Part shown: one piece after another, positions 1 to 63,271 of the stretch
Layout of the letters: every line of letters starts with the position of its first letter
Position numbering within the stretch: the first letter of the stretch is position 1
NCBI GenBank assembly: GCA_051362555.1
Contig: CM120641.1
Coordinates: 11,160,001-11,224,000, forward strand
Origin: Lingula anatina
Lineage: Eukaryota; Animalia; Brachiopoda
Direction: 5' to 3'
Length of the DNA: 64,000 nucleotides
Notes under the pieces: generated by a model
The model's database searches: none
Told to the model about the DNA's origin: nothing
The model's input: only the letters and a program-made list of their open reading frames with translations
Position numbers and translations under genes: made by a program

Positions 1-3000
1 TGTGAAGTTACATCACCTGCGACAGTTGTAGTCTCTTGTGCAGTCACACCAGAGGCTTGTGTTGTAACATCTGCAGCTGCTGTGGTGCTTGCATCAGTAA
101 CAGCAGCTGTCTGTGCCTGTGTGGTTACATCGGCAGCAGCAGTAGTCTGGGCTTGAGTTGTTGCTGCCTGTGAAGTTACATCACCTGCGACAGTTGTAGT
201 CTCTTGTGCAGTCACACCAGAGGCTTGTGTTGTAACATCTGCAGCTGCTGTGGTGCTTGCATCAGTAACAGCAGCTGTCTGTGCCTGTGTGGTTACATCG
301 GCAGCAGCAGTAGTCTGGGCTTGAGTTGTTGGTGCCTGTGAAGTTACATCACCTGCGACAGTTGTAGTCTCTTGTGCAGTCACACCAGAGGCTGGTGTTG
401 TAACATCTGCAGCTGCTGTGGTGCTTGCATCAGTAACAGCAGCTGTCTGTGCCTGTGTGGTTACATCGGCAGCAGCAGTAGTCTGGGCGTCATTTGTTGC
501 TGCCTGTGAAGTTACATCACCTGCGACAGTTGAAGTCTCTTGTGCAGTCACACCAGAGGCTTGTGTTGTAACATCTACAGCTGCTGTGGTGCTTGCATCA
601 GTAACTGCAGCTGTCTGTGCCTGTGTGGTTACATCGGCAGCAGCAGTAGTCTGGGCTTGAGTTGTTGCTGCCTGTGAAGTTACATCACCTGCGACAGTTG
701 AAGTCTCTTGTGCAGTCACACCAGAGGCTTGTGTTGTAACATCTGCAGCTGCTGTGGTGCTTGCATCAGTAACAGCAGCTGTCTGTGCCTGTGTGGTTAC
801 ATCGGCAGCAGCAGTAGTCTGGGCTTGAGTTGCTGCTGCCTGTAAAGTTACATCACCTGCGACAGTTGAAGTCTCTTGTGCAGTCACACCAGAGGCTTGT
901 GTTGTAACATCTGCAGCTGCTGTGGTGCTTGCATCAGTAACAGCAGCTGTCTGTGCCTGTGTGGTTACATCGGCAGCAGCAGTAGTCTGGGCTTGAGTTG
1001 TTGCTGCCTGTGAAGTTACATCACCTGCGACAGTTGTAGTCTCTTGTGCAGTCACACCAGAGGCTTGTGTTGTAACATCGGCAGCAGCAGTAGTCTGGGC
1101 TTGAGTTGTTGCTGCCTGTGAAGTTACATCACCTGCGACAGTTGTAGTCTCTTGTGCAGTCACACCAGAGGCTGGTGTTGTAACATCTGCAGCTGCTGTG
1201 GTGCTTGCATCAGTAACAGCAGCTGTTTGTGCCTGTGTGGTTACATCGGCAGCAGCAGTAGTCTGGGCTTGAGTTGTTGCTGCCTGTGAAGTTACATCAC
1301 CTGCGACAGTTGAAGTCTCTTGTGCAGTCACACCAGAGGCTTGTGTTGTAACATCTGCAGCTGCTGTGGAGCTTGCATCAGTAACAGCAGCTGTCTGTGC
1401 CTGTGTGGTTATATCGGCAGCAGCAGTAGTCTGGGCTTGAGTTGTTGCTGCCTGAGAAATTACATCACCTGTGACAGTTGAAGTCTCTTGTGCAGTCACA
1501 CCAGAGGCTTGTGTTGTAACATCTGCAGCTGCTGTGGTGCTTGCATCAGTAACAGGAGCTGTCTGTGCCTGTGTGGTTACATCGGCAGCAGCAGTAGTCT
1601 GGGCTTGAGTTGTTGCTGCCTGTGAAGTTACATCACCTGCGACAGTTGTAGTTTCTTGTGCAGTTACACCAGAGGCTTGTGTTGTAACATCTGCAGCTGC
1701 TGTGGTGCTTGCATCAGTAACAGCAGCTGTCTGTGCCTGTGTGGTTACATCGGCAGCAGCAGTAGTCTGGGCTTCAGTTGTTGCTGCCTGTGAAGTTACA
1801 TCACCTGCGACAGTTGTAGTCTCTTGTGCAGTCACACCAGAGGCTTGTGTTGTAACATCTGCAGCTGCTGTGGTGCTTGCATCAGTAACAACGGCTGTCT
1901 GTGCCTGTGTGGTAACATCGGCAGCAGCAGTAGTCTGGGCTTGAGTTGTTGCTGCCTGTGAAGTTACATCACCTGTGACAGTTGTAGTCTCTTGTGCAGT
2001 CACACCAGAGGCTTGTGTTGTAACATCGGCAGCAGCAGTAGTCTGGGCTTGAGTTGTTGCTGCCTGTGAAGTTACATCACCTGCGACAGTTGTAGTCTCT
2101 TGTGCAGTCACACCAGAGGCTGGTGTTGTAACATCTGCAGCTGCTGTGGTGCTTGCATCAGTAACAGCAGCTGTCTGTGCCTGTGTGGTTACATCGGCAG
2201 CAGCAGTAGTCTGGGCGTCATTTGTTGCTGCCTGTGAAGTTACATCACCTGCGACAGTTGAAGTCTCTTGTGCAGTCACACCAGAGGCTTGTGTTGTAAC
2301 ATCTACAGCTGCTGTGGTGCTTGCATCAGTAACTGCAGCTGTCTGTGCCTGTGTGGTTACATCGGCAGCAGCAGTAGTCTGGGCTTGAGTTGTTGCTGCC
2401 TGTGAAGTTACATCACCTGCGACAGTTGAAGTCTCTTGTGCAGTCACACCAGAGGCTTGTGTTGTAACATCTGCAGCTGCTGTGGTGCTTGCATCAGTAA
2501 CAGCAGCTGTCTGTGCCTGTGTGGTTACATCAGCAGCAGCAGTAGTCTGGGCTTGAGTTGTTGCTGCCTGTGAAGTTACATCACCTGCGACAGTTGTAGT
2601 CTCTTGTGCAGTCACACCAGAGGCTTGTGTTGTAACATCTGCAGCTGCTGTGGTGCTTGCATCAGTAACAGCAGCTGTCTGTGCCTGTGTGGTTACATCG
2701 GCAGCAGCAGTAGTCTGGGCTTGAGTTGTTGCTGCCTGTAAAGTTACATCACCTGCGACAGTTGAAGTCTCTTGTGCAGTCACACCAGAGGCTTGTGTTG
2801 TAACATCTGCAGCTGCTGTGGTGCTTGCATCAGTTACAGCAGCTGTCTGTGCCTGTGTGGTTACATCGGCAGCAGCAGTAGTCTGGGCTTGAGTTGTTGC
2901 TGCCTGTGAAGTTACATCACCTGCGACAGTTGAAGTCTCTTGTGCAGTCACACCAGAGGCTTGTGTTGTAACATCTGCAGCTGCTGTGGTGCTTGCATCA

Positions 3001-6000
3001 GTAACAGCAGCTGTCTGTGCCTGTGTGGTTACATCGGCAGCAGCAGTAGTCTGGGCTTGAGTTGTTGCTGCCTGTGAAGTTACATCACCTGCGACAGTTG
3101 AAGTCTCTTGTGCAGTCACACCAGAGGCTTGTGTTGTAACATCTGCAGCTGCTGTGGTGCTTGCATCAGTAACAGCAGCTGTCTGTGCCTGTGTGGTTAC
3201 ATCGGCAGCAGCAGTAGTCTGGGCTTGAGTTGTTGCTGCCTGTGAAGTTACATCACCTGCGACAGTTGTAGTCTCTTGTGCAGTCACACCAGAGGCTTGT
3301 GTTGTAACATCTGCAGCTGCTGTGGTGCTTGCATCAGTAACAGCAGCTGTCTGTGCCTGTGTGGTTACATCGGCAGCAGCAGTAGTCTGGGCTTGAGTTG
3401 TTGCTGCCTGTGAAGTTACATTACCTGCGACAGTTGTAGTCTCTTGTGCAGTCACACCAGAGGCTTGTGTTGTAACATCTGCACCTGCTGTGGTGCTTGC
3501 ATCAGTAACAGCAGCTGTCTGTGCCTGTGTGGTTACATCGGCAGCAGCAGTAGTCTGGGCTTGAGTTGTTGCTGCCTGTGAAGTTACATCACCTGCGACA
3601 GTTGTAGTCTCTTGTGCAGTCACACCAGAGGCTTGTGTTGTAACATCTGCAGTTGCTGTGGTGCTTGCATCAGTAACAGCAGCTGTCTGTGCCTGTGTGG
3701 TTACATCGGCAGCAGCAGTAGTCTGGGCTTGAGTTGTTGCTGCCTGTGAAGTTACATCACCTGCAACAGTTGTAGTCTCTTGTGCAGTCACACCAGAGGC
3801 TTGTGTTGTAACATCTGCAGCTGCTGTGGTGCTTGCATCAGTAACAGCAGTTGTCTGTGCCTGTGTGGTTACATCGGCAGCAGCAGTAGTCTGGGCTTGA
3901 GTTGTTGCTGCCTGTGAAGTTACATCACCTGCGACAGTTGTAGTCACTTGTGCAGTCACACCAGAGGCTTTTGTTGTAACATCTGCAGCTGCTGTGGTGC
4001 TTGCATCAGTAACAGCAGCTGTCTGTGCCTGTGTGGTTACATCGGCAGCAGCAGTAGTCTGGGCTTGAGTTGTTGCTGCCTGTGAAGTTACATCACCTGC
4101 GACAGTTGTAGTCTCTTGTGCAGTCACACCAGAGGCTTGTGTTGTAACATCTGCAGCTGCTGTGGTGCTTGCATCAGTAACAGCAGCTGTCTGTGCCTGT
4201 GTGGTTACATCGGCAGCAGCAGTAGTCTGGGCTTGAGTTGTTGCTGCCTGTGAAGTTACATCACCTGCGACAGTTGTAGTCTCTTGTGCAGTCACACCAG
4301 AGGCTTGTGTTGTAACATCTGCAGCTGCTGTGGTGCTTGCATCAGTAACAGCAGCTGTCTGTGCCTGTGTGGTTACATCGGCAGCAGCAGTAGTCTGGGC
4401 TTGAGTTGTTGCTGCTTGTGAAGTTACATCACCTGCGACAGTTGTAGTCACTTGTGCAGTCACACCAGAGGCTTTTGTTGTAACATCTGCAGCTGCTGTG
4501 GTGCTTGCATCAGTAACAGCAGCTGTCTGTGCCTGTGTGGTTACATCGGCAGCAGCAGTAGTCTGGGCTTGAGTTGTTGCTGCCTGTGAAGTTACATCAC
4601 CTGCGACAGTTGAAGTCTCTTGTGCAGTCACACCAGAGGCTTGTGTTGTAACATCTGCAGCTGCTGTGGTGCTTGCATCAGTAACAGCAGCTGTCTGTGC
4701 CTGTGTGGTTACATCGGCAGCAGCAGTAGTCTGGGCTTGAGTTGTTGCTGCCTGTGAAGTTACATCACCTGCGACAGTTGAAGTCTCTTGTGCAGTCACA
4801 CCAGAGGCTTGTGTTGTAACATCTGCAGCTGCTGTGGTGCTTGCATCAGTAACAGCAGCTGTCTGTGCCTGTGTGGTTACATCGGCAGCAGCAGTAGTCT
4901 GGGCTTGAGTTGTTGCTGCCTGTGAAGTTACATCACCTGCGACAGTTGTAGTCTCTTGTGCAGTCACACCAGAGGCTTGTGTTGTAACATCTGCAGCTGC
5001 TGTGGTGCTTGCATCAGTAACAGCAGCTGTCTGTGCCTGTGTGGTTACATCGGCAGCAGCAGTAGTCTGGGCTTGAGTTGTTGCTGCCTGTGAAGTTACA
5101 TCACCTGCGACAGTTGTAGTCTCTTGTGCAGTCACACCAGAGGCTTGTGTTGTAACATCTGCACCTGCTGTGGTGCTTGCATCAGTAACAGCAGCTGTCT
5201 GTGCCTGTGTGGTTACATCGGCAGCAGCAGTAGTCTGGGCTTGAGTTGTTGCTGCCTGTGAAGTTACATCACCTGCGACAGTTGTAGTCTCTTGTGCAGT
5301 CACACCAGAGGCTTGTGTTGTAACATCTGCAGTTGCTGTGGTGCTTGCATCAGTAACAGCAGCTGTCTGTGCCTGTGTGGTTACATCGGCAGCAGCAGTA
5401 GTCTGGGCTTGAGTTGTTGCTGCCTGTGAAGTTACATCACCTGCGACAGTTGTAGTCACTTGTGCAGTCACACCAGAGGCTTTTGTTGTAACATCTGCAG
5501 CTGCTGTGGTGCTTGCATCAGTAACAGCAGCTGTCTGTGCCTGTGTGGTTACATCGGCAGCAGCAGTAGTCTGGGCTTGAGTTGTTGCTGCCTGTGAAGT
5601 TACATCACCTGCGACAGTTGTAGTCTCTTGTGCAGTCACACCAGAGGCTTGTGTCGTAACATCTGCAGCTGCTGTGGTGCTTGCATCAGTAACAGAAGCT
5701 GTCTGTGCCTGTGTGGTTACATCGGCAGCAGCAGTAGTCTGGGCTTGAGTTGTTGCTGCCTGTGAAGTTACATCACCTGCGACAGTTGTAGTCTCTTGTG
5801 CACTCACACCAGAGGCTTGTGTTGTAACATCTGCAGCTGCTGTGGTGCTTGCATCAGTAACAGCAGCTGTCTGTGCCTGTGTGGTTACATCGGCAGCAGC
5901 AGTAGTCTGGGCTTGAGTTGTTGCTGCCTGTGAAGTTACATCACCTGCAACAGTTGTAGACTCTTGTGCAGTCACACCAGAGGCTTGTGTTGTAACATCT

Positions 6001-9000
6001 GCAGCTGCTGTGGTGCTTGCATCAGTAACAGCAGCTGTCTGTGCCTGTGTGGTTACATCGGCAGCAGCAGTAGTCTGGGCTTGAGTTGTTGCTGCCTGTG
6101 AAGTTACATCACCTGCGACAGTTGTAGTCTCTTGTGCAGTCACACCAGAGGCTTGTGTTGTAACAGCTGCAGCTGCTGTGGTGCTTGCATCAGTAACAGC
6201 AGCTGTGTGTGCCTGTGTGGTTACATCGGCAGCAGCAGTAGTCTGGGCTTGAGTTGTTGCTGCCTGTGAAGTTACATCACCTGCGACAGTTGTAGTCTCT
6301 TGTGCAGTCACACCAGAGGCTTGTGTTGTAACATCTGCACCTGCTGTGGTGCTTGCATCAGTAACAGCAGCTGTCTGTGCCTGTGTGGTTACATCGGCAG
6401 CAGCAGTAGTCTGGGCTTGAGTTGTTGCTGCCTGTGAAGTTACATCACCTGCGACAGTTGTAGTCTCTTGTGCAGTCACACCAGAGGCTTGTGTTGTAAC
6501 ATCTGCAGCTGCTGTGGTGCTTGCATCAGTAACAGCAGCTGTCTGTGCCTGTGTGGTTACATCGGCAGCAGCAGTAGTCTGGGCTTGAGTTGTTGCTGCC
6601 TGTGAAGTTACATCACCTGCGACAGTTGAAGTCTCTTGTGCAGTCACACCAGAGGCTTGTGTTGTAACATCTGCAGCTGCTGTGGTGCTTGCATCAGTAA
6701 CAGCAGCTGTCTGTGCCTGTGTGGTTACATCGGCAGCAGCAGTAGTCTGGGCTTGAGTTGTTGCTGCCTGTGAAGTTACATCACCTGCGACAGTTGTAGT
6801 CTCTTGTGCAGTCACACCAGAGGCTTGTGTTGTAACATCTGCAGCTGCTGTGGTGCTTGCATCAGTAACAGCAGCTGTCTGTGCCTGTGTGGTTACATCG
6901 GCAGCAGCAGTAGTCTGGGCTTGAGTTGTTGCTGCCTGTGAAGTTACATCACCTGCGACAGTTGTAGTCTCTTGTGCAGTCACACCAGAGGCTTGTGTTG
7001 TAACATCTGCACCTGCTGTGGTGCTTGCATCAGTAACAGCAGCTGTCTGTGCCTGTGTGGTTACATCGGCAGCAGCAGTAGTCTGGGCTTGAGTTGTTGC
7101 TGCCTGTGAAGTTACATCACCTGCGACAGTTGTAGTCTCTTGTGCAGTCACACCAGAGGCTTGTGTTGTAACATCTGCAGTTGCTGTGGTGCTTGCATCA
7201 GTAACAGCAGCTGTCTGTGCCTGTGTGGTTACATCGGCAGCAGCAGTAGTCTGGGCTTGAGTTGTTGCTGCCTGTGAAGTTACATCACCTGCGACAGTTG
7301 TAGTCACTTGTGCAGTCACACCAGAGGCTTTTGTTGTAACATCTGCAGCTGCTGTGGTGCTTGCATCAGTAACAGCAGCTGTCTGTGCCTGTGTGGTTAC
7401 ATCGGCAGCAGCAGTAGTCTGGGCTTGAGTTGTTGCTGCCTGTGAAGTTACATCACCTGCGACAGTTGTAGTCTCTTGTGCAGTCACACCAGAGGCTTGT
7501 GTCGTAACATCTGCAGCTGCTGTGGTGCTTGCATCAGTAACAGAAGCTGTCTGTGCCTGTGTGGTTACATCGGCAGCAGCAGTAGTCTGGGCTTGAGTTG
7601 TTGCTGCCTGTGAAGTTACATCACCTGCGACAGTTGTAGTCTCTTGTGCACTCACACCAGAGGCTTGTGTTGTAACATCTGCAGCTGCTGTGGTGCTTGC
7701 ATCAGTAACAGCAGCTGTCTGTGCCTGTGTGGTTACATCGGCAGCAGCAGTAGTCTGGGCTTGAGTTGTTGCTGCCTGTGAAGTTACATCACCTGCAACA
7801 GTTGTAGACTCTTGTGCAGTCACACCAGAGGCTTGTGTTGTAACATCTGCAGCTGCTGTGGTGCTTGCATCAGTAACAGCAGCTGTCTGTGCCTGTGTGG
7901 TTACATCGGCAGCAGCAGTAGTCTGGGCTTGAGTTGTTGCTGCCTGTGAAGTTACATCACCTGCGACAGTTGTAGTCTCTTGTGCAGTCACACCAGAGGC
8001 TTGTGTTGTAACAGCTGCAGCTGCTGTGGTGCTTGCATCAGTAACAGCAGCTGTGTGTGCCTGTGTGGTTACATCGGCAGCAGCAGTAGTCTGGGCTTGA
8101 GTTGTTGCTGCCTGTGAAGTTACATCACCTGCGACAGTTGTAGTCTCTTGTGCAGTCACACCAGAGGCTTGTGTTGTAACATCTGCACCTGCTGTGGTGC
8201 TTGCATCAGTAACAGCAGCTGTCTGTGCCTGTGTGGTTACATCGGCAGCAGCAGTAGTCTGGGCTTGAGTTGTTGCTGCCTGTGAAGTTACATCACCTGC
8301 GACAGTTGTAGTCTCTTGTGCAGTCACACCAGAGGCTTGTGTTGTAACATCTGCAGCTGCTGTGGTGCTTGCATCAGTAACAGCAGCTGTCTGTGCCTGT
8401 GTGGTTACATCGGCAGCAGCAGTAGTCTGGGCTTGAGTTGTTGCTGCCTGTGAAGTTACATCACCTGCGACAGTTGTAGTCTCTTGTGCAGTCACACCAG
8501 AGGCTTGTGTTGTAACATCTGCAGTTGCTGTGGTGCTTGCATCAGTAACAGCAGCTGTCTGTGCCTGTGTGGTTACATCGGCAGCAGCAGTAGTCTGGGC
8601 TTGAGTTGTTGCTGCCTGTGAAGTTACATCACCTGCGACAGTTGTAGTCTCTTGTGCAGTCACACCAGAGGCTTGTGTTGTAACATCTGCAGCTGCTGTG
8701 GTGCTTGCATCAGTAACAGCAGCTGTCTGTGCCTGTGTGGTTACATCGGCAGCAGCAGTAGTCTGGGCTTGAGTTGTTGCTGCCTGTGAAGCTACATCAC
8801 CTGCGACAGTTGTAGTCTCTTGTGCAGTCACACCAGAGGCTTGTGTTGTAACATCTGCAGTTGCTGTGGTGCTTGCATCAGTAACAGCAGCTGTCTGTGC
8901 CTGTGTGGTTACATCGGCAGCAGCAGTATTCTGGGCTTGAGTTGTTGCTGCCTGTGAAGTTACATCACCTGCGACAGTTGTAGTCTCTTGTGCAGTCACA

Positions 9001-12000
9001 CCAGAGGCTTGTGTTGTAACATCTGCAGCTGCTGTGGTGCTTGCATCAGTAACAGCAGCTGTCTGTGCCTGTGTGGTTACATCGGCAGCAGCAGTAGTCT
9101 GGGCTTGAGTTGTTGCTGCCTGTGAAGTTACATCACCTGCGACAGTTGAAGTCTCTTGTGCAGTCACACCAGAGGCTTGTGTTGTAACATCTGCAGCTGC
9201 TGTGGTGCTTGCATCAGTAACAGCAGCTGTCTGTGCCTGTGTGGTTACATCGGCAGCAGCAGTAGTCTGGGCTTGAGTTGTTGCTGCCTGTGAAGTTACA
9301 TCACCTGCGACAGTTGTAGTCTCTTGTGCAGTCACACCAGAGGCTTGTGTTGTAACATCTGCAGCTGCTGTGGTGCTTGCATCAGTAACAGCAGCTGTCT
9401 GTGCCTGTGTGGTTACATCGGCAGCAGCAGTAGTCTGGGCTTGAGTTGTTGTTACCTGTGAAGTTACATCACCTGCGACAGTTGTAGTCACTTGTGCAGT
9501 CACACCAGAGGCTTGTGTTGTAACATCTGCAGCTGCTGTGGTGCTTGCATCAGTAACAGCAGCTGTCTGTGCCTGTGTGGTTACATCGGCAGCAGCAGTA
9601 GTCTGGGCTTGAGTTGTTGCTGCCTGTGAAGTTACATCACCTGCGACAGTTGTAGTCTCTTGTGCAGTCACACCAGAGGCTTGTGTTGTAACATCTGCAG
9701 TTGCTGTGGTGCTTGCATCAGTAACAGCAGCTGTCTGTGCCTGTGTGGTTACATTGGCAGCAGCAGTAGTCTGCACTTGAGTTGTTGTTACCTGTGAAGT
9801 TACATCACCTGCGACAGTTGTAGTCACTTGTGCAGTCACACCAGAGGCTTTTGTTGTAACATCTGCAGCTGCTGTGGTGCTTGCATCAGTAACAGCAGCT
9901 GTCTGTGCCTGTGTGGTTACATCGGCAGCAGCAGTAGTCTGGGCTTGAGTTGTTGTTACCTTTGAAGTTACATCACCTGCGACAGTTGTAGTCACTTGTG
10001 CAGTCACACCAGAGGCTTGTGTTGTAACATCTGCAGCTGCTGTGGTGCTTGCATCAGTAACAGCAGCTGTCTGTGCCTGTGTGGTTACATCGGCAGCAGC
10101 AGTAGTCTGGGCTTGAGTTGTTGCTGCCTGTGAAGTTACATCACCTGCGACAGTTGTAGTCTCTTGTGCAGTCACACCAGAGGCTTGTGTTGTAACATCT
10201 GCAGCTGCTGTGGTGCTTGCATCAGTAACAGAAGCTGTCTGTGCCTGTGTGGTTACATCGGCAGCAGCAGTAGTCTGGGCTTGAGTTGTTGCTGCCTGTG
10301 AAGTTACATCACCTGCGACAGTTGTAGTCTCTTGTGCACTCACACCAGAGGCTTGTGTTGTAACATCTGCAGCTGCTGTGGTGCTTGCATCAGTAACAGC
10401 AGCTGTCTGTGCCTGTGTGGTTACATCGGCAGCAGCAGTAGTCTGGGCTTGAGTTGTTGCTACCTGTGAAGTTACATCACCTGCGACAGTTGTAGTCTCT
10501 TGTGCAGTCACACCAGAGGCTTGTGTTGTAACATCTGCAGCTGCTGTGGTGCTTGCATCAGTAACAGCAGCTGTCTGTGCCTGTGTGGTTACATCGGCAG
10601 CAGCAGTAGTCTGGGCTTGAGTTGTTGCTGCCTGTGAAGTTACATCACCTGCGACAGTTGTAGTCTCTTGTGCAGTCACACCAGAGGCTTGTGTTGTAAC
10701 ATCTGCAGCTGCTGTGGTGCTTGCATCAGTAACAGAAGCTGTCTGTGCCTGTGTGGTTACATCGGCAGCAGCAGTAGTCTGGGCTTGAGTTGTTGCTGCC
10801 TGTGAAGTTACATCACCTGCGACAGTTGTAGTCTCTTGTGCACTCACACCAGAGGCTTGTGTTGTAACATCTGCAGCTGCTGTGGTGCTTGCATCAGTAA
10901 CAGCAGCTGTCTGTGCCTGTGTGGTTACATCGGCAGCAGCAGTAGTCTGGGCTTGAGTTGTTGCTGCCTGTGAAGTTACATCACCTGCAACAGTTGTAGT
11001 CTCTTGTGCAGTCACACCAGAGGCTTGTGTTGTAACATCTGCAGCTGCTGTGGTGCTTGCATCAGTAACAGCAGCTGTCTGTGCCTGTGTGGTTACATCG
11101 GCAGCAGCAGTAGTCTGGGCTTGAGTTGTTGCTACCTGTGAAGTTACATCACCTGCGACAGTTGTAGTCTCTTGTGCAGTCACACCAGAGGCTTGTGTTG
11201 TAACATCTGCAGCTGCTGTGGTGCTTGCATCAGTAACAGCAGCTGTCTGTGCCTGTGTGGTTACATCGGCAGCAGCAGTAGTCTGGGCTTGAGTTGTTGC
11301 TGCTTGTGAAGTTACATCACCTGCGACAGTTGTAGTCTCTTGTGCTGTCACACCAGAGGCTTGTGTTGTAACATCTGCAGCTGCTGTGGTGCTTGCATCA
11401 GTAACAGCAGCTGTCTGTGCCTGTGTGGTTACATCGGCAGCAGCAGTAGTCTGGGCTTGAGTTGTTGCTACCTGTGAAGTTACATCACCTGCCACAGTTG
11501 TAGTCTCTTGTGCAGTCACACCAGAGGCTTGTGTTGTAACATCTGCAGCTGCTGTGGTGCTTGCATCAGTAACAGCAGCTGTCTGTGCCTGTGTGGTTAC
11601 ATCGGCAGCAGCAGTAGTCTGAGCTTGAGTTGTTGCTGCCTGTGAAGTTACATCACCTGCGACAGTTGTAGTCTCTTGTGCAGTCACACCAGAGGCTTGT
11701 GTTGTAACATCTGCAGCTGCTGTGGTGCTTGCATCAGTAACAACAGCTGTCTGTGCCTGTGTGGTTACATCGGCAGCAGCAGTAGTCTGGGCTTGAGTTG
11801 TTGCTGCCTGTGAAGTTACATCACCTGCGACAGTTGTAGTCTCTTGTGCAGTCACACCAGAGGCTTGTGTTGTAACATCTGCAGCTGCTGTGGTGCTTGC
11901 ATCAGTAACAGCAGCTGTCTGTGCCTGTGTGGTTACATCGGCAGCAGCAGTAGTCTGGGCTTGAGTTGTTGCTGCCTGTGAAGTTACATCACCTGCGACA

Positions 12001-48000: not shown

Positions 48001-51000
48001 GCTGTGGTGCTTGCATCAGTTACAGCAGCTGTCTGTGCCTGTGTGGTTACATCGGCAGCAGCAGTAGTCTGGGCTTGAGTTGTTGCTGCCTGTGAAGTTA
48101 CATCACCTGCGACAGCTGTAGTCTCTTGTGCAGTCACACCAGAGGCTTGTGTTGTAACATCTGCAGCTGCTGTGGTGCTTGCATCAGTAACAGCAGCTGT
48201 CTGTGCCTGTGTGGTTACATCCGCAGCAGCAGTAGTCTGGGCTTGAGTTGTTGCTGCCTGTGAAGTTACATCACCTGCGACAGTTGTAGTCTCTTGTGCA
48301 GTCACACCAGAGGCTTGTGTTGTAACATCTGCAGCTGCTGTGGTGCTTGCATCAGTAACAGCAGCTGTCTGTGCCTGTGTGGTTACATCGGCCGCAGCAG
48401 TAGTATGGGCTTGAGTTGTTGCTGCCTGTGAAGTTACATCACCTGCGACAGTTGTAGTCTCTTGTGCAGTCACACCAGAGGCTTGTGTTGTAACATCTGC
48501 AGCTGCTGTGGTGCTTGCATCAGTTACAGCAGCTGTCTGTGCCTGTGTGGTTACATCGGCAGCAGCAGTAGTCTGGGCTTGAGTTGTTGCTGCCTGTGAA
48601 GTTACATCACCTGCGACAGCTGTAGTCTCTTGTGCAGTCACACCAGAGGCTTGTGTTGTAACATCTGCAGCTGCTGTGGTGCTTGCATCAGTAACAGCAG
48701 CTGTCTGTGCCTGTGTGGTTACATCCGCAGCAGCAGTAGTCTGGGCTTGAGTTGTTGCTGCCTGTGAAGTTACATCACCTGCGACAGTTGTAGTCTCTTG
48801 TGCAGTCACACCAGAGGCTTGTGTTGTAACATCTGCAGCTGCTGTGGTGCTTGCTACAGTAACAGCAGCTGTCTGTGCCTGTGTGGTTACATCGGCCGCA
48901 GCAGTAGTATGGGCTTGAGTTGTTGCTGCCTGTGAAGTTACATCACCTGCGACAGTTGTAGTCTCTTGTGCAGTCACACCAGAGGCTTGTGTTGTAACAT
49001 CTGCAGCTGCTGTGGTGCTTGCATCAGTAACAGCAGCTGTCTGTGCTTGTGTGGTTACATCCGCAGCAGCAGTAGTCTGGGCTTGAGTTGTTGCTGCCTG
49101 TGAAGTTACATCACCTGCCACAGTTGTAGTCTCTTGTGCAGTCACACCAGAGGCTTGTGTTGTAACATCTGCAGCTGCTGTGGTGCTTGCATCAGTAACA
49201 GCAGCTGGCTGTGCATGTGTGGTTACATCGGCAGCAGCAGTAGTCTGGGCTTGAGTTGTTGCTGCCTGTGAAGTTACATCACCTGCGACAGTTGTAGTCT
49301 CTTGTGCAGTCACACCAGAGGCTTGTGTTGTAACATCTGCAGCTGCTGTGGTGCTTGCATCAGTAACAGCAGCTGTCTGTGCTTGTGTGGTTACATCCGC
49401 AGCAGCAGTAGTCTGGGCTTGAGTTGTTGCTGCCTGTGAAGTTACATCACCTGCGACAGTTGTAGTCTCTTGTGCAGTCACACCAGAGGCTTGTGTTGTA
49501 ACATCTGCAGCTGCTGTGGTGCTTGCATCAGTAACAGCAGCTGTCTGTGCATGTGTGGTTATATCGGCAGCAGCAGCAGTCTGGGCTTGAGTTGTTGCTG
49601 CCTGTGAAGTTACATCACCTGCCACAGTTGTAGTCTCTTGTGCAGTCACACCAGAGGCTTGTGTTGTAACATCTGCAGCTGCTGTGGTGCTTGCATCAGT
49701 TACAGCAGCTGTCTGTGCCTGTGTGGTTACATCGGCAGCAGCAGTAGTCTGGGCTTGAGTTGTTGCTGCCTGTGAAGTTACATCACCTGCGACAGCTGTA
49801 GTCTCTTGTGCAGTCACACCAGAGGCTTGTGTTGTAACATCTGCAGCTGCTGTGGTGCTTGCATCAGTAACAGCAGCTGTCTGTGCCTGTGTGGTTACAT
49901 CCGCAGCAGCAGTAGTCTGGGCTTGAGTTGTTGCTGCCTGTGAAATTACATCACCTGCGACAGTTGTAGTCTCTTGTGCAGTCACACCAGAGGCTTGTGT
50001 TGTAACATCTGCAGCTGCTGTGGTGCTTGCATCAGTAACAGCAGCTGTCTGTGCCTGTGTGGTTACATCGGCCGCAGCAGTAGTATGGGCTTGAGTTGTT
50101 GCTGCCTGTGAAGTTACATCACCTGCGACAGTTGTAGTCTCTTGTGCAGTCACACCAGAGGCTTGTGTTGTAACATCTGCAGCTGCTGTGGTGCTTGCAT
50201 CAGTAACAGCAGCTGTCTGTGCTTGTGTGGTTACATCCGCAGCAGCAGTAGTCTGGGCTTGAGTTGTTGCTGCCTGTGAAGTTACATCACCTGCCACAGT
50301 TGTAGTCTCTTGTGCAGTCACACCAGAGGCTTGTGTTGTAACATCTGCAGCTGCTGTGGTGCTTGCATCAGTAACAGCAGCTGTCTGTGCCTGTGTGGTT
50401 ACATCGGCAGCAACAGTAGTCTGGGCTTGAGTTGTTGCTGCCTGTGAAGTTACATCACCTGCTACAGTTGTAGTCTCTTGTGCAGTCACACCAGAGGCTT
50501 GTGTTGTAACATCTGCAGCTGCTGTGGTGCTTGCATCAGTAACAGCAGCTGTCTGTGCCTGTGTGGTTACATCGGCAGCAGCAGTAGTCTGGGCTTGAGT
50601 TGTTGCTGCCTGTGAAGTTACATCACCTGCGACAGTTGTAGTCTCTTGTGCAGTCACACCAGAGGCTTGTGTTGTAACATCTGCAGCTGCTGTGGTGCTT
50701 GCATCAGTTACAGCAGCTGTCTGTGCCTGTGTGGTTACATCGGCCGCAGCAGTAGTCTGGGCTTGAGTTGTTGCTGCCTGTGAAGTTACATCACCTGCGA
50801 CAGTTGTAGTCTCTTGTGCAGTCACACCAGAGGCTTGTGTTGTAACATCTGCAGCTGCTGTGGTGCTTGCATCAGTAACAGCAGCTGTCTGTGCTTGTGT
50901 GGTTACATCCGCAGCAGCAGTAGTCTGGGCTTGAGTTGTTGCTGCCTGTGAAGTTACATCACCTGCGACAGTTGTAGTCTCTTGTGCAGTCACACCAGAG

Positions 51001-54000
51001 GCTTGTGTTGTAACATCTGGAGCTGCTGTGGTGCTTGCATCAGTAACAGAAGCTGTCTGTGCCTGTGTGGTTACACCGGCAGCAGCAGTAGTCTGGGCTT
51101 GAGTTGTTGCTGCCTGTGAAGTTACATCACCTGCCACAGTTGTAGTCTCTTGTGCAGTCACTCCAGAGGCTTGTGTTGTAACATCTGCAGCTGCTGTGGT
51201 GCTTGCATCAGTAACAGCAGCTGTCTGTGCCTGTGTGGTTACATCAGCCGCAGCAGTAGTCTGGGCTTGAGTTGTTGCTGCCTGTGAAGTTACATCACCT
51301 GCGACAGTTGTAGTCTCTTGTGCAGTCACACCAGAGGCTTGTGTTGTAACATCTGCAGCTGCTGTGGTGCTTGCATCAGTAACAGCAGCTGTCTGTGCAT
51401 GTGTGGTTACATCGGCAGCAGCAGTAGTCTGGGCTTGAGTTGTTGCTGCCTGTGAAGTTACATCACCTGCGACAGTTGTAGTCTCTTGTGCAGTCACACC
51501 AGAGGCTTGTGTTGTAACATCTGCAGCTGCTGTGGTGCTTGCATCAGTAACAGCAGCTGTCTGTGCCTGTGTGGTTACATCGGCCGCAGCAGTAGTCTGG
51601 GCTTGAGTTGTTGCTGCCTGTGAAGTTACATCACCTGTGACAGTTGTAGTCTCTTGTGTAGTCACACCAGAGGCTTTTGTTGTAACATCTGCAGCTGCTG
51701 TGGTGCTTGCATCAGTAACAGCAGCTGTCTGTGCCTGTGTGGTTACATCGGCAGCAGCAGTAGTCTGTGCTTGAGTTGTTGCTGCCTGTGAAGTTACATC
51801 ACCTGCGACAGTTGTAGTCTCTTGTGCAGTCACACCAGAGGCTTGTGTTGTAACATCTGCAGCTGCTGTGGTGCTTGCATCAGTAACATCAGCTGTCTGT
51901 GCCTGTGTGGTTACATCGGCAGCAGCAGTAGTCTGGGCTTGAGTTGTTGCTGCCTGTGAAGTTACATCACCTGCGACAGTTGTAGTCTCTTGTGCAGTCA
52001 CACCAGAGGCTTGTGTTGTAACATCTGCAGCTGCTGTGGTGCTTGCATCAGTAACAGCAGCTGTCTGTGCCTGTGTGGTTACATCGGCAGCAGCAGTAGT
52101 CTGGGCTTGAGTTGTTGCTGCCTGTGAAGTTACATCACCTGCGACAGTTGTAGTCTCTTGTGCAGTCACACCAAAGGCTTGTGTTGTAACATCTGCAGCT
52201 GCTGTGGTGCTTGCATCAGTAACAGCAGCTGTCTGTGCCTGTGTGGTAAGATCGGCAGTAGCAGTAGTCTGGGCTTGAGTTGTTGCTGCCTGTGAATTTA
52301 CATCACCTGCGACAGTTGTAGTCTCTTGTGCAGTCACACCAGAGGATTGTGTTGTTACATCTGCAGCTGCTGTGGTGCTTGCATCAGTAACAGCAGCTGT
52401 CTGTGCCTGTGTGGTTCCATCGGCAGCAGCAGTAGTCTGGGCTTGAGTTGTTGCTGCCTGTGAAGTTATATCACCTGTCACAGTTGTAGTCTCTTGTGCA
52501 GTCACACCAGAGGCTTGTGTTGTAACATCTGCAGCTGCTGTGGTGCTTGCATCAGTAACAGCAGCTGTCTGTGCCTGTGTGGTTACATCGGCAGCAGCAG
52601 TAGTCTGTGCTTGAGTTGTTGCTGCCTGTGAAGTTACATCACCTGCGATAGTCACACCATAGGTTTGTGTTGTAACATCTGCAGCTGCTGTGGTGCTTGC
52701 ATCAGTAACAGCAGCTGTTTGTGCCTGTGTGGTAACAATAGAAGCAGCAGTAGTCTGTGCTTGAGTTGTTGCTGCCTGTGAAGTTATATCACCTGCGACA
52801 GTTGTAGTCTCTTGTGCAGTCACACCAGAGGCTTGTGTTGTAACATCTGCAGCTGCTGTGGTGCTTGCTTCAGTAACAGCAGCTGTCTGTGCCTGTGTGG
52901 TTACATCGGCAGCAGCAGTAGTCAGGGCTTGAGTTGTTGCTGCCTGTGAAGTTGCATCACCTGCGACAGTTGTAGTCTCTTGTGCAGTCACACCAGAGGC
53001 TTGTGTTGTAACATCTGCAGCTGCTGTGGTGCTTGCATCAGTAACAGCAGCTGTCTGTGCCTTAGTCGTTACATCGGCAGCAGCAGTAGTCTGGGCTTGA
53101 GTTGTTGCTGCCTGTGAAGTTGCATCACCTGCGACAGTTGTAGTCTCATGTGCAGTCACACCAGAGGCTTGTGTTGTAACATCTGCAGCTGCTGTGGTGC
53201 TTGCATCAGTAACAGCAGCTGTCTGTGCCTGTGTGGTTACATCGGCAGCAGCAGTAGTCTTGGCTTGAGTTGTTCCTGCCTGTGAAGTTACATCACCTGG
53301 GACAGTTGTAGTCTCTTGTGCAGTCACACCAGAGGCTTGTGTTGTAACATCTGCAGCTGCTGTGGTGCTTGCATCAGTAACAGCAGCTGTCTGTGCCTGT
53401 GTGGTAACAATGGAAGCAGCAGTAGTCTGGGCTTGAGTTGTTGCTTCCTGTGAAGTTACATCACCTGCCACAGTTGTAGTCTCTTGTGCAGTCACACCAG
53501 AGGCTTGTGTTGTAACATCTGCAGCTGCTGTGGTGCTCCCATCAGTAACAGCAGCTGTCTGTGCCTGTGTGGTTACATCGGCAGCAGCAGTAGTCTGTGC
53601 TTGAGTTGTTGCTGCCTGTGAAGTTATATCACCTGCGACAGTTGTAGTCTCTTGTGCAGTCACACCAGAGGCTTGTGTTGTAACATCTGCAGCTGCTGTG
53701 GTGCTTGCATCAGTAACAGCAGCTGTCTGTGCCTGTGTGGTTACATCGGCAGCAGCAGTAGTCTGGGCTTGAGTTGTTCCTGCCTGTGAAGTTACATCAC
53801 CTGGGACAGTTGTAGTCTCTTGTGCAGTCACACCAGAGGCTTGTGTTGTAACATCTGCAGCTGCTGTGGTGCTTGCATCAGTAACAGCAGCTGTCTGTGC
53901 CTGTGTGGTAACAATAGAAGCAGCAGTAGTCTGGGCTTGAGTTGTTGCTGCCTGTGAAGTTACATCACCTGCGACAGTTGTAGTCTCTTGTGCAGTCACA

Positions 54001-57000
54001 CCAGAGGCTTGTGTTGTAACATCTGCAGCTGCTGTGATGCTTGCATCAGTAACAGCAGCTGTCTGTGCCTGTGTGGTTATATCAGCAGCAGCAGTAGTCT
54101 GTGCTTGAGTTGTTGCTGCCTGTGAAGTTATATCACCTGCGACAGTTGTAGTCTCTTGTGCAGTCACACCAGAGGCTTGTGTTGTAACATCTGCAGCTGC
54201 TGTGGTGCTTGCTTCAGTAACAGCAGCTGTCTGTGCCTGTGTGGTTACATCAGCAGCAGCAGTAGTCACACCAGAGGCTTGTGTTATAACATCTGCAGCT
54301 GCTGTGGTGCTTGCATCAGTAACAGCAGCTGTCTGTGCCTGTGTGGTTACATCGGCAGCAGCAGTAGTCTGGGCTTGAATTGTTGTTGCCTGTGAAGTTA
54401 CATCACCTGCGACAGTTGTAGTCTCTTGTGCAGTCACACCAGAGGCTTGTGTTGTAACATCTGCAGCTGCTGTGGTGCTTGCTTCAGTAACAGCAGCTGT
54501 CTGTGCCTGTGTGGTTACATCAGCAGCAGCAGTAGTCAGGGCTTGAGTTGTTGCTGCCTGTGAAGTTGCATCACCTGCGACAGTTGTAGTCTCTTGTGCA
54601 GTCACACCAGAGGCTTGTGTTGTAACATCTGCAGCTGCTGTGGTGCTTGCTTCAGTAACAGCAGCTGTCTGTGCCTTAGTCGTAACATCGGTAGCAGCAG
54701 TAGTCAGGGCTTGATTTGTTGCTGCCTGTGAAGTTGCATCACCTGCGACAGTTGTAGTCTCATGTGCAGTTACACCAGAGGCTTGTGTTGTAACATCTGC
54801 AGCTGCTGTGGTGCTTGCATCAGTAACAGCAGCTGTCTGTGCCTGTGTGGTTACATCGGCAGCAGCAGTAGTCTGGGCTTGAGTTGTTCCTGCCTGTGAA
54901 GTTACATCACCTGGGACAGTTGTAGTCTCTTGTGCAGTCACACCAGAGGCTTGTGTTGTAACATCTGCAGCTGCTGTGGTGCTTGCATCAGTAACAGCAG
55001 CTGTCTGTGCCTGTGTGGTAACAATAGAAGCAGCAGTAGTCTGGGCTTGAGTTGTTGCTGCCTGTGAAGTTACATCACCTGCGACAGTTGTAGTCTCTTG
55101 TGCAGTCACACCAGAGGCTTGTGTTGTAACATCTGCAGCTGCTGTGGTGCTTGCATCAGTAACAGCAGCTGTCTGTGCCTGTGTGGTTATATCAGCAGCA
55201 GCAGTAGTCTGTGCTTGAGTTGTTGCTGCCTGTGAAGTTATATCACCTGCGACAGTTGTAGTCTCTTGTGCAGTCACACCAGAGGCTTGTGTTGTAACAT
55301 CTGCAGCTGCTGTGGTGCTTGCTTCAGTAACAGCAGCTGTCTGTGCCTGTGTGGTTACATCGGCAGCAGCAGTAGTCAGGGCTCTAGTTGTTGCTGCCTG
55401 TGAAGTTGCATCACCTGCGACAGTTGTAGTCTCTTGTGCAGTCACACCAGAGGCTTGTGTTGTAACATCTGCAGCTGCTGTGGTGCTTGCATCAGTAACA
55501 GCAGCTGTCTGTGCCTTAGTCGTTACATCGGCAGCAGCAGTAGTCTGGGCTTGAGTTGTTGCTGCCTGTGAAGTTGCATCACCTGCGACAGTTGTAGTCT
55601 CATGTGCAGTCACACCAGAGGCTTGTGTTGTAACATCTGCAGCTGCTGTGGTGCTCCCATCAGTAACAGCAGCTGTCTGTGCCTGTGTGGTTACATCGGC
55701 AGCAGCAGTAGTCTGTGCTTGAGTTGTTGCTGCCTGTGAAGTTATATCACCTGCGACAGTTGTAGTCTCTTGTGCAGTCACACCAGAGGCTTGTGTTGTA
55801 ACATCTGCAGCTGCTGTGGTGCTTGCATCAGTAACAGCAGCTGTCTGTGCCTGTGTGGTTACATCGGCAGCAGCAGTAGTCTGGGCTTGAGTTGTTCCTG
55901 CCTGTGAAGTTACATCACCTGGGACAGTTGTAGTCTCTTGTGCAGTCACACCAGAGGCTTGTGTTGTAACATCTGCAGCTGCTGTGGTGCTTGCATCAGT
56001 AACAGCAGCTGTCTGTGCCTGTGTGGTAACAATAGAAGCAGCAGTAGTCTGGGCTTGAGTTGTTGCTGCCTGTGAAGTTACATCACCTGCGACAGTTGTA
56101 GTCTCTTGTGCAGTCACACCAGAGGCTTGTGTTGTAACATCTGCAGCTGCTGTGATGCTTGCATCAGTAACAGCAGCTGTCTGTGCCTGTGTGGTTATAT
56201 CAGCAGCAGCAGTAGTCTGTGCTTGAGTTGTTGCTGCCTGTGAAGTTATATCACCTGCGACAGTTGTAGTCTCTTGTGCAGTCACACCAGAGGCTTGTGT
56301 TGTAACATCTGCAGCTGCTGTGGTGCTTGCTTCAGTAACAGCAGCTGTCTGTGCCTGTGTGGTTACATCAGCAGCAGCAGTAGTCACACCAGAGGCTTGT
56401 GTTGTAACATCTGCAGCTGCTGTGGTGCTTGCATCAGTAACAGCAGCTGTCTGTGCCTGTGTGGTTACATCGGCAGCAGCAGTAGTCTGGGCTTGAATTG
56501 TTGTTGCCTGTGAAGTTACATCACCTGCGACAGTTGTAGTCTCTTGTGCAGTCACACCAGAGGCTTGTGTTGTAACATCTGCAGCTGCTGTGGTGCTTGC
56601 TTCAGTAACAGCAGCTGTCTGTGCCTGTGTGGTTACATCAGCAGCAGCAGTAGTCAGGGCTTGAGTTGTTGCTGCCTGTGAAGTTGCATCACCTGCAACA
56701 GTTGTAGTCTCTTGTGCAGTCACACCAGAGGCTTGTGTTGTAACATCTGCAGCTGCTGTGGTGCTTGCTTCAGTAACAGCAGCTGTCTGTGCCTTAGTCG
56801 TAACATCGGTAGCAGCAGTAGTCAGGGCTTGATTTGTTGCTGCCTGTGAAGTTGCATCACCTGCGACAGTTGTAGTCTCATGTGCAGTTACACCAGAGGC
56901 TTGTGTTGTAACATCTGCAGCTGCTGTGGTGCTTGCATCAGTAACAGCAGCTGTCTGTGCCTGTGTGGTTACATCGGCAGCAGCAGTAGTCTGGGCTTGA

Positions 57001-58293
57001 GTTGTTCCTGCCTGTGAAGTTACATCACCTGGGACAGTTGTAGTCTCTTGTGCAGTCACACCAGAGGCTTGTGTTGTAACATCTGCAGCTGCTGTGGTGC
57101 TTGCATCAGTAACAGCAGCTGTCTGTGCCTGTGTGGTAACAATAGAAGCAGCAGTAGTCTGGGCTTGAGTTGTTGCTGCCTGTGAAGTTACATCACCTGC
57201 GACAGTTGTAGTCTCTTGTGCAGTCACACCAGAGGCTTGTGTTGTAACATCTGCAGCTGCTGTGGTGCTTGCATCAGTAACAGCAGCTGTCTGTGCCTGT
57301 GTGGTTATATCAGCAGCAGCAGTAGTCTGTGCTTGAGTTGTTGCTGCCTGTGAAGTTATATCACCTGCGACAGTTGTAGTCTCTTGTGCAGTCACACCAG
57401 AGGCTTGTGTTGTAACATCTGCAGCTGCTGTGGTGCTTGCTTCAGTAACAGCAGCTGTCTGTGCCTGTGTGGTTACATCGGCAGCAGCAGTAGTCAGGGC
57501 TCTAGTTGTTGCTGCCTGTGAAGTTGCATCACCTGCGACAGTTGTAGTCTCTTGTGCAGTCACACCAGAGGCTTGTGTTGTAACATCTGCAGCTGCTGTG
57601 GTGCTTGCATCAGTAACAGCAGCTGTCTGTGCCTTAGTCGTTACATCGGCAGCAGCAGTAGTCTGGGCTTGAGTTGTTGCTGCCTGTGAAGTTGCATCAC
57701 CTGCGACAGTTGTAGTCTCATGTGCAGTCACACCAGAGGCTTGTGTTGTAACATCTGCAGCTGCTGTGGTGCTTGCATCAGTAACAGCAGCTGTTTGTGC
57801 CTGTGTGGTTACATCGACAGCAGCAGTAGTCTGGGCTTGAGTTATTCCTGCCTGTGAAGTTACATCACCTGCCACAGTTGTAGTCTCTTGTTCAGTCACA
57901 CCAGAGGCTTGTGTTGTAACATCTGCAGCTGCTGTGGTGCTTGCATCAGTAACAGCAGCTGTCTGTGCCTGTGTGGTAACAATGGAAGCAGCAGTAGTCT
58001 GGGCTTGAGTTGTTGCTGCCTGTGAAGTTACATCACCTGGGACAGTTGTAGTCTCTTGTGCAGTCACACCAGAGGCTTGTGTTGTAACATCTGCAGCTGC
58101 TGTGGTGCTTACATCAGTAACAGCAGCTGTTTGTGCCTGTGTGGTTACATCGGCAGCAGCAGTAGTCTGGGCTTGAATTGTTGTTGCCTGTGAAGTTACA
58201 TCACCTGCGACAGTTGTAGTCTCTTGTGCAGTCACACCAGAGGCTTGTGTTGTAACATCTGCAGCTGCTGTGGTGCTTGCATCAGTAACAGCA
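1..58293. repeat. Coding tandem repeat (VNTR), 168-bp unit, about 349 copies in the window
   Basis: The unit tgtgaagttacatcacc...gagttgttgctgcc recurs every 168 bp. Phase checked at 1, 1621, 2401, 21721, 22891, 52291, 53281, 54391, 57181 and 58021. The only phase shifts are deletions of 60, 60, 6, 18, 66 and 66 bp. Most copies differ from consensus by only a few substitutions. Confidence 0.99.
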
Positions 58294-58661: not shown

Positions 58662-58718
58662 GGCTTGATTAATAGTCCAGCATGCATGGCATTGAGGTCT
58701 GTTGAATTTATTCTTTAA

Positions 58719-58745
58719 CTGAAACAGGAATAAAATTAGGATTGT
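58719..58745 (-). promoter_or_regulatory. Candidate 3' splice site (branch point, polypyrimidine tract, CAG) upstream of the giant exon
   Basis: The minus strand reads ...atcctaattttattcctgtttcag|ttaaag, with a ctaat branch-like motif and tttcag acceptor. The exon would begin at 58718. The nearest upstream in-frame stop (TAA) is at 58755-58757. Confidence 0.55.
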
Positions 58746-59084
58746 AAAATTTAATTAACAAATGATTAATTAGTGCTTGACTTGCATGTCTTTATGCAGT
58801 TCAGAAACATGAAACTGTTTTTGAATGTAGTGTGAAATCTTTCAGCGTATACAAAAAAGTGACGAATGATGGGTGCATTATCCATCAACATTTGGTTAAC
58901 TCATATCTCATAACAATGTTTCGGAACTTTTTTGGTTGAGTGTACAATGACAATGTATTCACATAATCCTAATGTATAAATTATACATCAAGCCCCCAGT
59001 TTGGTGTCTAATTTTTAGATATCTTTGCAAAGAAAAATCAACTTCATTTTTCACATTTTGATCTAGGTACAAGAAGGTTTGATC

Positions 59085-59146
59085 GTGAAAGGTCTACTTT
59101 TTCAGCAAAAGCCCCCACTCCCCTGAAATTTCTGGCTACGGACCTG
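59085..59146. mobile_element. Possible degenerate end of a MITE or non-autonomous DNA transposon
   Basis: ctggctacggacctg (59132-59146), preceded by C-runs, resembles the ctggctacgggcctg terminal inverted repeat I recall from invertebrate MITEs. No partner TIR was found in the window and the similarity is from memory, not a search. Confidence 0.25.
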
Positions 59147-59416
59147 TAGTACTAGGATTAGTTGACCTGTTGCCTTCAACCAGGCTTCTCACATGTGGGC
59201 TGGACCAAAGAAGTAGATAAGTAGTACATAGGTCACCTTTGTTAACACTGGACGAAAAATGGGAGTATGGCATAATCTCAAATACAGGAACGTAAGGTTT
59301 CGAAAAAACCCACAGTGATGTTGTCAGCGACAGTTACTCAACTTCCCTACTTAATGAACTCTGCCAATAGTGAACGCATTCAACACCGTACCTGAGCAGT
59401 TTTTGCGTCCAGCTGC

Positions 59417-59423
59417 TATATAA
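59417..59423 (+). promoter_or_regulatory. LTR TATA box
   Basis: tatataa about 95 bp into the LTR, inside a 9-bp inverted repeat; identical copy at 63367-63373. Confidence 0.65.
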
Positions 59424-59494
59424 GCTGGACGTTTTCTACAGCGGTATGCAGTGCGGCATCGACACACTCCGACGACCACAGCTTGTAGCAACGA

Positions 59495-59960
59495 CCGGCG
59501 GCTCGACAGCAGCGGTTCTCTCCAGCGCCTCGCACCGGCCTACGATTCCGCGGTCACCCCGGTGGCTCGACAGCAGCGGTTCTCTCCAGCGCCTCGAACC
59601 GGCCTACGACTCCGCGGTCACCCCGGCGGCTCGACAGCAGCGGTTCTCTCCAGCGCCTCGAACCGGCCTACGACTCCGCGGTCACCCCGGCGGCTCGACA
59701 GCAGCGGTTCTCTCCAGCGTCTCGCACCGGCCTACGACTCCGCGGTCACCCCGGCGGCTCGACAGCAGCGGTTCTCTACAGCACCTCGCACCGGCCCACG
59801 ATTCTGCGGTCACCCAGGCGGCTCGACAGCGGTCTACTCCTGCTCCAATCATCGGCCCAAGACTCGACGGTCACCCCGGCGGCTCGATATCGGTCTACTC
59901 GACTCCTGCGCCACTCACTGCCCACGACCCAGCAGTCATCCCGGCGGCTTACGACAGTGG
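59495..59960 (+). repeat. GC/CpG-rich 64-bp tandem array inside the 5' LTR (5 conserved plus about 3 degenerate units)
   Basis: Unit ccggcggctcgacagcagcggttctctccagcgcctcgcaccggcctacgactccgcggtcacc starts at 59495, 59559, 59623, 59687 and 59751. Degenerate copies start at about 59815, 59876 and 59941. Confidence 0.95.
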
Positions 59961-60049
59961 TATCTCTCGATAGTAGTCCAACCGACAGCGATCCATTTCG
60001 ATTTGGTTTAATTTTATTTTCATTCAATTTTTGTAACCATTTATTCGCT

Positions 60050-60055
60050 ATTAAA
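60050..60055 (+). terminator. Candidate LTR polyadenylation signal (ATTAAA)
   Basis: attaaa followed by T/GT-rich sequence (ttcgttcttgttg) near the LTR 3' end. Confidence 0.45.
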
Positions 60056-60115
60056 TTATTTATTTATTTATTTACTTCGTTCTTGTTGCTTCTGTCACCG
60101 TCTCGTCCGCAACAT

Positions 60116-60133
60116 TGGTCTCGCGAGCCGGAT
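60116..60133 (+). other. Primer binding site, tRNA-Tyr-like
   Basis: tggtctcgcgagccggat directly after the LTR. It matches the metazoan tRNA-Tyr PBS TGGTCCTTCGAGCCGGAT at 15 of 18 positions, and its complement ends G-A-CCA (G72/A73, as in eukaryotic tRNA-Tyr). Confidence 0.75.
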
Positions 60134-60148
60134 TTCAACACCTACGGC

Positions 60149-63212: not shown

Positions 63213-63260
63213 TTATATATTTAATTTTTGACACTGTCGCTTCCAGTTAATCGTGTTACT

Positions 63261-63271
63261 GCGAGGGGGTA
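63261..63271 (+). other. Polypurine tract
   Basis: gcgagggggta immediately before the 3' LTR start (tgt at 63272). Confidence 0.8.

Follow-up and report, generated by a model that had tools for sequence, protein, structure and literature searches.

The Balbiani ring (BR) proteins of Chironomus have a role in tube silk. Their genes BR1, BR2 and BR6, expressed in the secretory gland, carry a central coding tandem array of about 35 kb that short-read assemblies lose (PMC4192438). The flatworm adhesive protein Mlig-ap2, a secreted and glycosylated giant of 14,794 aa from a marine spiralian, combines a vWD, TIL and LDL head and a TSP1 tail with repeats of 221–255 aa and has no database homologue (PMC6410801). 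Human mucins with VNTR exons, MUC12 in particular, possess one very large Ser/Thr-rich repeat exon in which the open reading frame (ORF) is kept; MUC12 alleles encode up to 23,080 aa and cover an allele size range of 55,233 bp, and repeats degenerate at the array boundary (2026 preprint, PMC13345508). A typical mucin PTS domain contains at least 40% Ser+Thr and often more than 5% Pro, and the gel-forming mucins MUC2, MUC5AC and MUC5B are secreted, O-glycosylated, repeat-rich chains (PMC4948705). At the upper end of protein size, PKZILLA-1 (45,212 aa, the longest protein known) and titin are multi-domain and multi-exon (17 exons; bioRxiv 10.1101/2024.01.29.577497).

Here, we report a real, frame-protected giant repeat ORF in the brachiopod Lingula anatina. 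It lies in a stretch of 64,000 nt (contig CM120641.1 of assembly GCA_051362555.1, positions 11,160,001–11,224,000 of the forward strand), hereafter the window. The stop-free frame extends over at least 58.7 kb and is likely one giant exon of a Lingula gene. The reading that we favor, with a probability of roughly 60%, is that this gene, likely through a single giant exon, encodes a mucin-like polymer exceeding 19,500 residues that is predicted to be secreted and to carry dense O-glycosylation. A gene for a secreted protein of megadalton scale can, on this reading, pass for a "satellite" in an invertebrate genome that is well studied and have no entry in any of the protein collections searched.

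The locus resembles the MUC12-type mucins in its single very large Ser/Thr-rich repeat exon, in the higher divergence at the array boundary and, probably, in large length differences between individuals. No sequence relationship to them was found, the Lingula repeat being composed of Thr, Ala, Gln, Val and Asp with almost no Pro, and the signal-like head seems to be located in the same exon as the array. The comparison with membrane mucins (SEA, EGF, NIDO-AMOP-VWD, TM) is limited to the N-terminal part, as the Lingula C-terminus lies beyond the window. With the gel-forming mucins the predicted product would share secretion, O-glycosylation and a repeat-rich chain, whereas the VWD-C8-TIL head, the CysD interruptions and indeed any Cys are missing from the ORF. 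Compared with the BR genes, the Lingula array, known here as a genomic ORF, is at least 1.7 times longer and unrelated in sequence; in contrast to Mlig-ap2, the protein has no folded head and a unit of 56 aa. The likeness to PKZILLA-1 and titin is one of size class only, and the part seen in the window is less than half the length of PKZILLA-1. An initial sequence-only reading of this DNA had considered known coding exons (MUC16 about 22 kb, TTN about 17 kb) to be much shorter, a statement that the MUC12 alleles have made outdated; on present evidence the locus is not a size record, since long MUC12 alleles match it. Its unusual points are the chemistry (almost no Pro, no Cys, no folded head) and a hinted tenfold length range.

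Open reading frame and composition

Six-frame translation of the window yielded one minus-strand frame that is stop-free from 58754 to position 3 (19,584 codons), i.e., up to the left window edge as originally claimed; the next-longest stop-free run across all six frames has 768 codons. The sole Met of the frame occurs in the context AGCCATGA. Counted from this Met, the product has a mass of 1.86 MDa, with 5.31 kDa per repeat unit, in good agreement with the earlier estimates of at least 1.85 MDa and about 5.3 kDa. The unique N-terminus, the start codon and the roughly 349 repeats of 56 aa described at that stage were likewise recovered. Coordinates of all features are collected in Table 1.

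Table 1. Features of the window, with positions counted from its first letter.
Feature	Positions	Strand	Description	Basis
Tandem array	1..58298	-	about 347–349 units of 168 nt (56 aa)	TRF and anchor matches
ORF	3..58661	-	19,553 codons, one Met, stop-free within the window, continues beyond the left edge	translation
Predicted signal peptide, aa 1–40	58542..58661	-		judged by hand from signal-peptide rules
Ser/Thr-rich unique linker, about aa 41–121	58299..58541	-	Cys-free, without a Pfam match	
Probable 5' leader part of the exon	58662..58718	-	open in the main frame too	
Predicted splice acceptor	58719..58745	-	CTAAT branch-like motif (58739–58735), pyrimidine tract, CAG ending at 58719	sequence only
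Young LTR retrotransposon, presumably BEL/Pao type	59322..64000	+	neighbor outside the gene, on the opposite strand; lies 660 nt upstream of the ATG	

Six residues dominate the composition of the product: Thr (30.1%), Ala (27.6%), Gln (11.8%), Val (10.8%), Asp (7.0%) and Ser (5.8%). Ser and Thr total 7,018, and Thr and Val together make up 41%. Pro occurs 33 times in 19,553 aa (0.17%), Cys is absent, and three N-glycosylation sequons are present. Trypsin would find 58 sites in the whole product. Ser+Thr averages 35.9% over 1,946 windows of 100 aa, of which 0.2% reach 40%, and Pro accounts for at most 2% of any such window; both values lie below those usual for PTS domains. Tandem repeats within one large exon that keeps its ORF, another PTS-type feature, are found at the genomic level, with exon boundaries predicted. 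Of the traits of gel-forming mucins, neither an N-terminal VWD-C8-TIL arrangement nor Cys-rich domains are seen, as there is no Cys and no Pfam match within aa 1–400. Hence, the label "mucin-like" given in the sequence-only reading is fair as an analogy, but with Ser+Thr at 36%, Pro at 0.17% and no Cys the protein cannot be filed among the mucins.

Repeat array

The array contains 349 anchor matches, whose spacing is exactly 168 nt in 342 of 348 cases. The six remaining spacings (102, 102, 108, 108, 150, and 162 nt) are all multiples of three, and the short units correspond to in-frame deletions of 2, 6, 20, and 22 aa. Each 56-aa unit carries 20 Ser/Thr and 5 acidic residues, giving a net charge of -5 before sugars, and consists of three related modules of 17–20 aa that begin with DVT(T/S)QA. 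The unit is a triplication of this module (TRF period 54, about 54% matches).

Full units are on average 98.4% identical to the majority unit and represent 190 distinct sequences among 342; the unit at 50684–50517 is identical to the majority unit. Divergence from it is highest near the head (4.66 differences), and the values near the left window edge are among the lowest (1.4–1.9), hence the end of the array is probably not close to that edge. Local higher-order repeats are present at lags of 13, 7, 20, and 11 units. The first 35 units (52500–58298, minus strand) are set apart from the rest as a sub-array of higher divergence, in which a higher-order repeat spans 13 units. CpG is strongly depleted across the array, with an observed/expected ratio of 0.17.

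Head, leader, and splice acceptor

The head begins with a basic n-region, followed by the hydrophobic residues 21–31 and by A-V-A before the likely cut. Residues 21–31 constitute the most hydrophobic 11-residue window of the entire ORF (Kyte-Doolittle 2.07). By the usual rules on hydropathy and residue pattern, the N-terminal residues are a plausible signal peptide; the best 19-residue window has a value of 1.38, which makes a type II anchor that escapes cleavage the less probable option.

The branch-like CTAAT, the pyrimidine tract and the CAG end make an upstream exon likely, and the single Met together with the signal-like head argues against an in-phase coding exon there. The initial description as "single-exon" therefore applies to the ORF inside the window, while the strong acceptor points to at least one further exon upstream. 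The leader contains three out-of-frame upstream ATGs (58692, 58687, and 58683, minus strand); the second opens a 9-codon uORF whose TGA stop overlaps the main ATG and which could tune translation.

Frame protection

Among 2,000 shuffled units, 44% retained at least one open frame, so that an open unit by itself says little about coding. Outside the array, the frame is open over 152 codons, a length that none of 5,000 shuffles matched. A more direct view is offered by variation among the units, in which 175 of the 504 possible single-base changes occur somewhere in the array. Ten of the possible changes would create a stop codon in the ORF frame; none of them was seen, and 4.57 were expected after matching for mutation type (P = 0.0013). 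Neutral behavior is found in each of the other five frames, with 11 of 22, 12 of 29, 8 of 23, 15 of 29, and 6 of 14 possible stop gains seen and 9.1, 12.6, 8.4, 14.9, and 5.5 expected, respectively. At the 7 Gln first positions, C>T was seen 0 times, C>A 5 times and C>G 2 times; at the remaining 19 CpA sites, C>T occurs 7 times. Non-coding satellite DNA is free of frame constraint, whereas here stop gains are depleted in one frame only. This supports a coding array over a neutral satellite, as had been proposed from the sequence for a giant repeat exon behind an apparent satellite.

After type matching, synonymous variants are modestly enriched (50 versus 40.4 expected, P = 0.009); without this correction the variant fractions are equal (50/142 synonymous, 125/352 non-synonymous). 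Changes that create Pro are not depleted (10 versus 8.7 expected). The tolerated Pro changes and the in-frame deletions fit an unfolded chain selected for composition over fold.

Array integrity and length variation

The longest exact duplicate within the array measures 2,743 nt, and all 3-kb words are unique. Variants cluster regionally, with a median span of 103.5 units compared with 273.5 after shuffling; such clustering and the higher-order repeats would be expected of unequal exchange and should be resolvable by long reads.

The head or part of it is present in ten public DNA runs from four studies. Depth was examined in runs X1 and X2, with X3–X7 and the low-share X8–X11 and X21 set aside. 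In X2, which represents another sample, one contig across 58265–59350 shows three differences, of which one is coding and synonymous, and the unique head is open and intact as in the window. The exact repeat contig of X2 has a repeat-to-head depth ratio of 69, corresponding to approximately 96 units after correction. In X1, a possible source run, the summed repeat depth is 1,400–3,200 times that of the head. When 349 units were simulated, the summed ratio varied with the settings between about 100 and 7,000; the X1 ratio falls within or above the simulated values and is thus compatible with 349 or more units. The setting closest to the observed contig counts yields about 830–1,000 units in X1, averaged over haplotypes and any other loci with the repeat. 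Read as rough depth ratios, not as true copy numbers, and with library bias able to mimic length differences, these values hint at a large length polymorphism between samples (about 100 versus perhaps 800–1,000 units). The displayed loose ends of contigs on one unit consist of repeat sequence only. The concern that the assembly might over-expand the array finds no sign in public DNA depth.

Taken at its upper end, this range would mean an array of 140–170 kb (about 800–1,000 units) in one open exon and a secreted chain of 46,000–56,000 residues, longer than PKZILLA-1, with about 100 units in other Lingula individuals. Such a near-tenfold polymorphism in a Cys-free, nearly Pro-free mucus or fibre protein without relatives we regard as unlikely.

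Homologue and literature searches

No homologue was found for aa 1–253 among 1.84 billion protein representatives, for aa 1–184 among proteins of 323–2,000 aa, or for aa 1–400 among proteins of 4,400–14,000 aa. In a local control, repeat-only or head-only targets would score E<1e-34. The ORF is thus absent from protein collections in which the positive control would have matched, which is in line with the suggestion that it is unannotated. Pfam gave no match to aa 1–400 and Foldseek none at E≤0.001; ESM Atlas returned no usable match for aa 1–400 or aa 1–125, a result that speaks neither for novelty nor for absence. A literature search of titles and abstract starts found no description of the gene. 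The main text of the 2026 Lingula genome paper (PMC13121700) does not mention mucin, tandem repeat or satellite, and its supplements and gene models could contain the gene.

Expression data

Six RNA runs (X12, X13, X15, X18, X19, and X20), five of them labeled poly(A) or oligo-dT and one unspecified, were compared with 58131–59490, reading 6–30% of each; X14, X16, and X17 were set aside. Within these fractions, no read fell on the unique head in any of the six runs, and no RNA run was among the matches listed in a run search with the head. Repeat-unit reads were found in X18 (about 9–10 from 7 starts, in both orientations) and X19 (4 from 2 starts), and none were found in the 6–30% read of X12, X13, X15, and X20. 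Since hundreds of copies collapse on one unit, these reads represent a trace level indistinguishable from DNA carry-over. For the minus-strand transcription called for by the sequence-only reading, the reads examined amount at most to traces on the repeat in two of six runs, with nothing on the head. The absence of head reads weighs little, because poly(A) coverage of giant mRNAs declines once the distance to the 3' end exceeds about 10 kb (PKZILLA preprint, bioRxiv 10.1101/2024.01.29.577497).

RNA reads at 58775–58960 and 59050–59140 were rejected as expression evidence, because they continue into sequence that does not match and derive from a dispersed repeat. A small dispersed element at 58852–58934 has 15-nt inverted arms and an internal hairpin (58867–58887); it is matched by many RNA reads and by DNA contigs from other loci, and its depth in X1 is about 70–100 times that of single-copy sequence.

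Predicted product and alternative explanations

In the favored reading, the N-terminal signal peptide would bring the polypeptide into the secretory pathway, and many of the Thr and Ser residues would receive GalNAc-type glycans. The resulting glycosylated polyanion may adopt the form of an extended, water-binding bottle brush of about 5–7 micrometres, a length that follows from the usual rise per residue. Such a brush could thicken mucus or an adhesive secretion, of burrow and pedicle or of mantle and lophophore, the tissue being a guess. Because the 19,553 residues contain no Cys, cross-linking or a membrane anchor must lie in the C-terminus beyond the window, or else a gel would form through entanglement and cation bridging. 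The array would lengthen and shorten by unequal exchange, with selection maintaining frame and composition more than exact residues. Several published observations are consistent with this. Lingulids have a pedicle anchored by mucous secretion (PMC10733332), Lingula shell proteomes include low-complexity orphans rich in Ala, Ser, Thr, and Asp (PMC4595640, PMC13425148), and human mucin VNTR exons of similar size retain their ORFs (PMC13345508). If expressed, the exon would be among the largest coding exons reported, and its product would be a candidate component of the mucus of lingulid burrows or pedicles or of the phosphate shell's matrix of Ala-rich orphans.

The product of a real gene might also be a β-solenoid or cross-β rod, in which every unit contributes three coils of 17–20 aa and the Asp residues line up as a ladder that may bind Ca2+. 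Instead of a glycan brush, it would then be a structural fibre or a scaffold that binds mineral. We consider this doubtful, though the least so of the alternatives. Single-sequence AlphaFold2 places a β-helix over residues 119–340 (pLDDT about 57–75 there), closest to the Ca2+-dependent bacterial ice-binding structure 3p4g (Z 20.0, rmsd 2.2, 217 aligned residues, 9% identity), and an alignment-based model built on 19 array stretches reaches a mean pLDDT of 88.8. However, the two models disagree, one showing short coils and the other one unit per turn with 24-residue strands; in the latter, a SufD/SufB-type structure is the best match (Z 11), 3p4g drops to Z 6, and five models spread from pLDDT 52 to 89. 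Moreover, AlphaFold2 is documented to model repeats as solenoids with confidence but unrealistically, human MUC22 being one example both as such and after permutation (PMC11795689), so that with discordant models the solenoid stays in the position of a rival. The near absence of Pro, the high Thr+Val content and the Ala/Thr/Asp-rich shell orphans (PMC13425148) count in its favor, whereas Pro substitutions show no depletion and the array tolerates deletions of 2, 6, and 22 aa. A text search of two shell-proteome supplements, where sequences may not be given, did not find the repeat motifs. A different fate of the chain, quite unlikely in our view, is that of an egg polyprotein of cortical granules or jelly, cut at Asp-initiated modules into thousands of glycopeptides. 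Its models are fish hyosophorin and polysialoglycoprotein; hyosophorins are tandem repeats of one glycopeptide, rich in carbohydrate and depolymerised at fertilisation (PMC3528131). Four Asp-initiated modules do recur 208–281 times each in the ORF, and an ovary-only gene would account for the near-silence in RNA runs, but no sequence relationship to hyosophorin was found among the 1.84 billion representatives, and the product is far above the 200-kDa size of the fish proteins.

The remaining explanations question the protein itself. A non-coding satellite, a gene recently silenced, e.g., by the LTR insertion upstream, or an array inflated by the assembler appears very unlikely. The proportion of shuffled units with an open frame, the trace-level RNA evidence, the young retroelement close to the ATG, and the X2 depth suggesting about 96 units can be cited for one or other of these. 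Against them stand the frame-specific stop depletion, the unique head that is open and intact in a second sample, the lack of any exact duplicate of 3 kb or more, and the repeat depth in X1. The least probable possibility is that the gene is real and much of the array is spliced out or untranslated, leaving a far smaller product. No read spans the array, which contains nine GTRAG motifs; against this, stop depletion was measured on variants spread along the whole array, the majority unit lacks both a GTRAG donor and an AG preceded by a pyrimidine tract, and GTRAG is missing from the head as well.

Neighboring retroelement

The element upstream of the ORF matches DUF1759, a zinc knuckle, a protease, and a partial RT; we take it to belong to BEL/Pao on account of DUF1759. 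Its pol frame shares 88% identity with Lingula anatina LOC106177695, compared with 29–41% for the next matches; as a single mobile-element marker, it points to Lingula as the likely organism. Over 729 compared bases, the LTR from 59322 and the one from 63272 show 3 differences. The element looks internally deleted, because the internal part is only about 3.2 kb long and the pol frame stops just short of the second LTR. The X2 contig extends 29 bases into the LTR, which is below the 31-base bridging threshold. Each LTR carries a 64-nt tandem repeat in about six copies, and LTR depth in X1 is about 18 times that of single-copy sequence.
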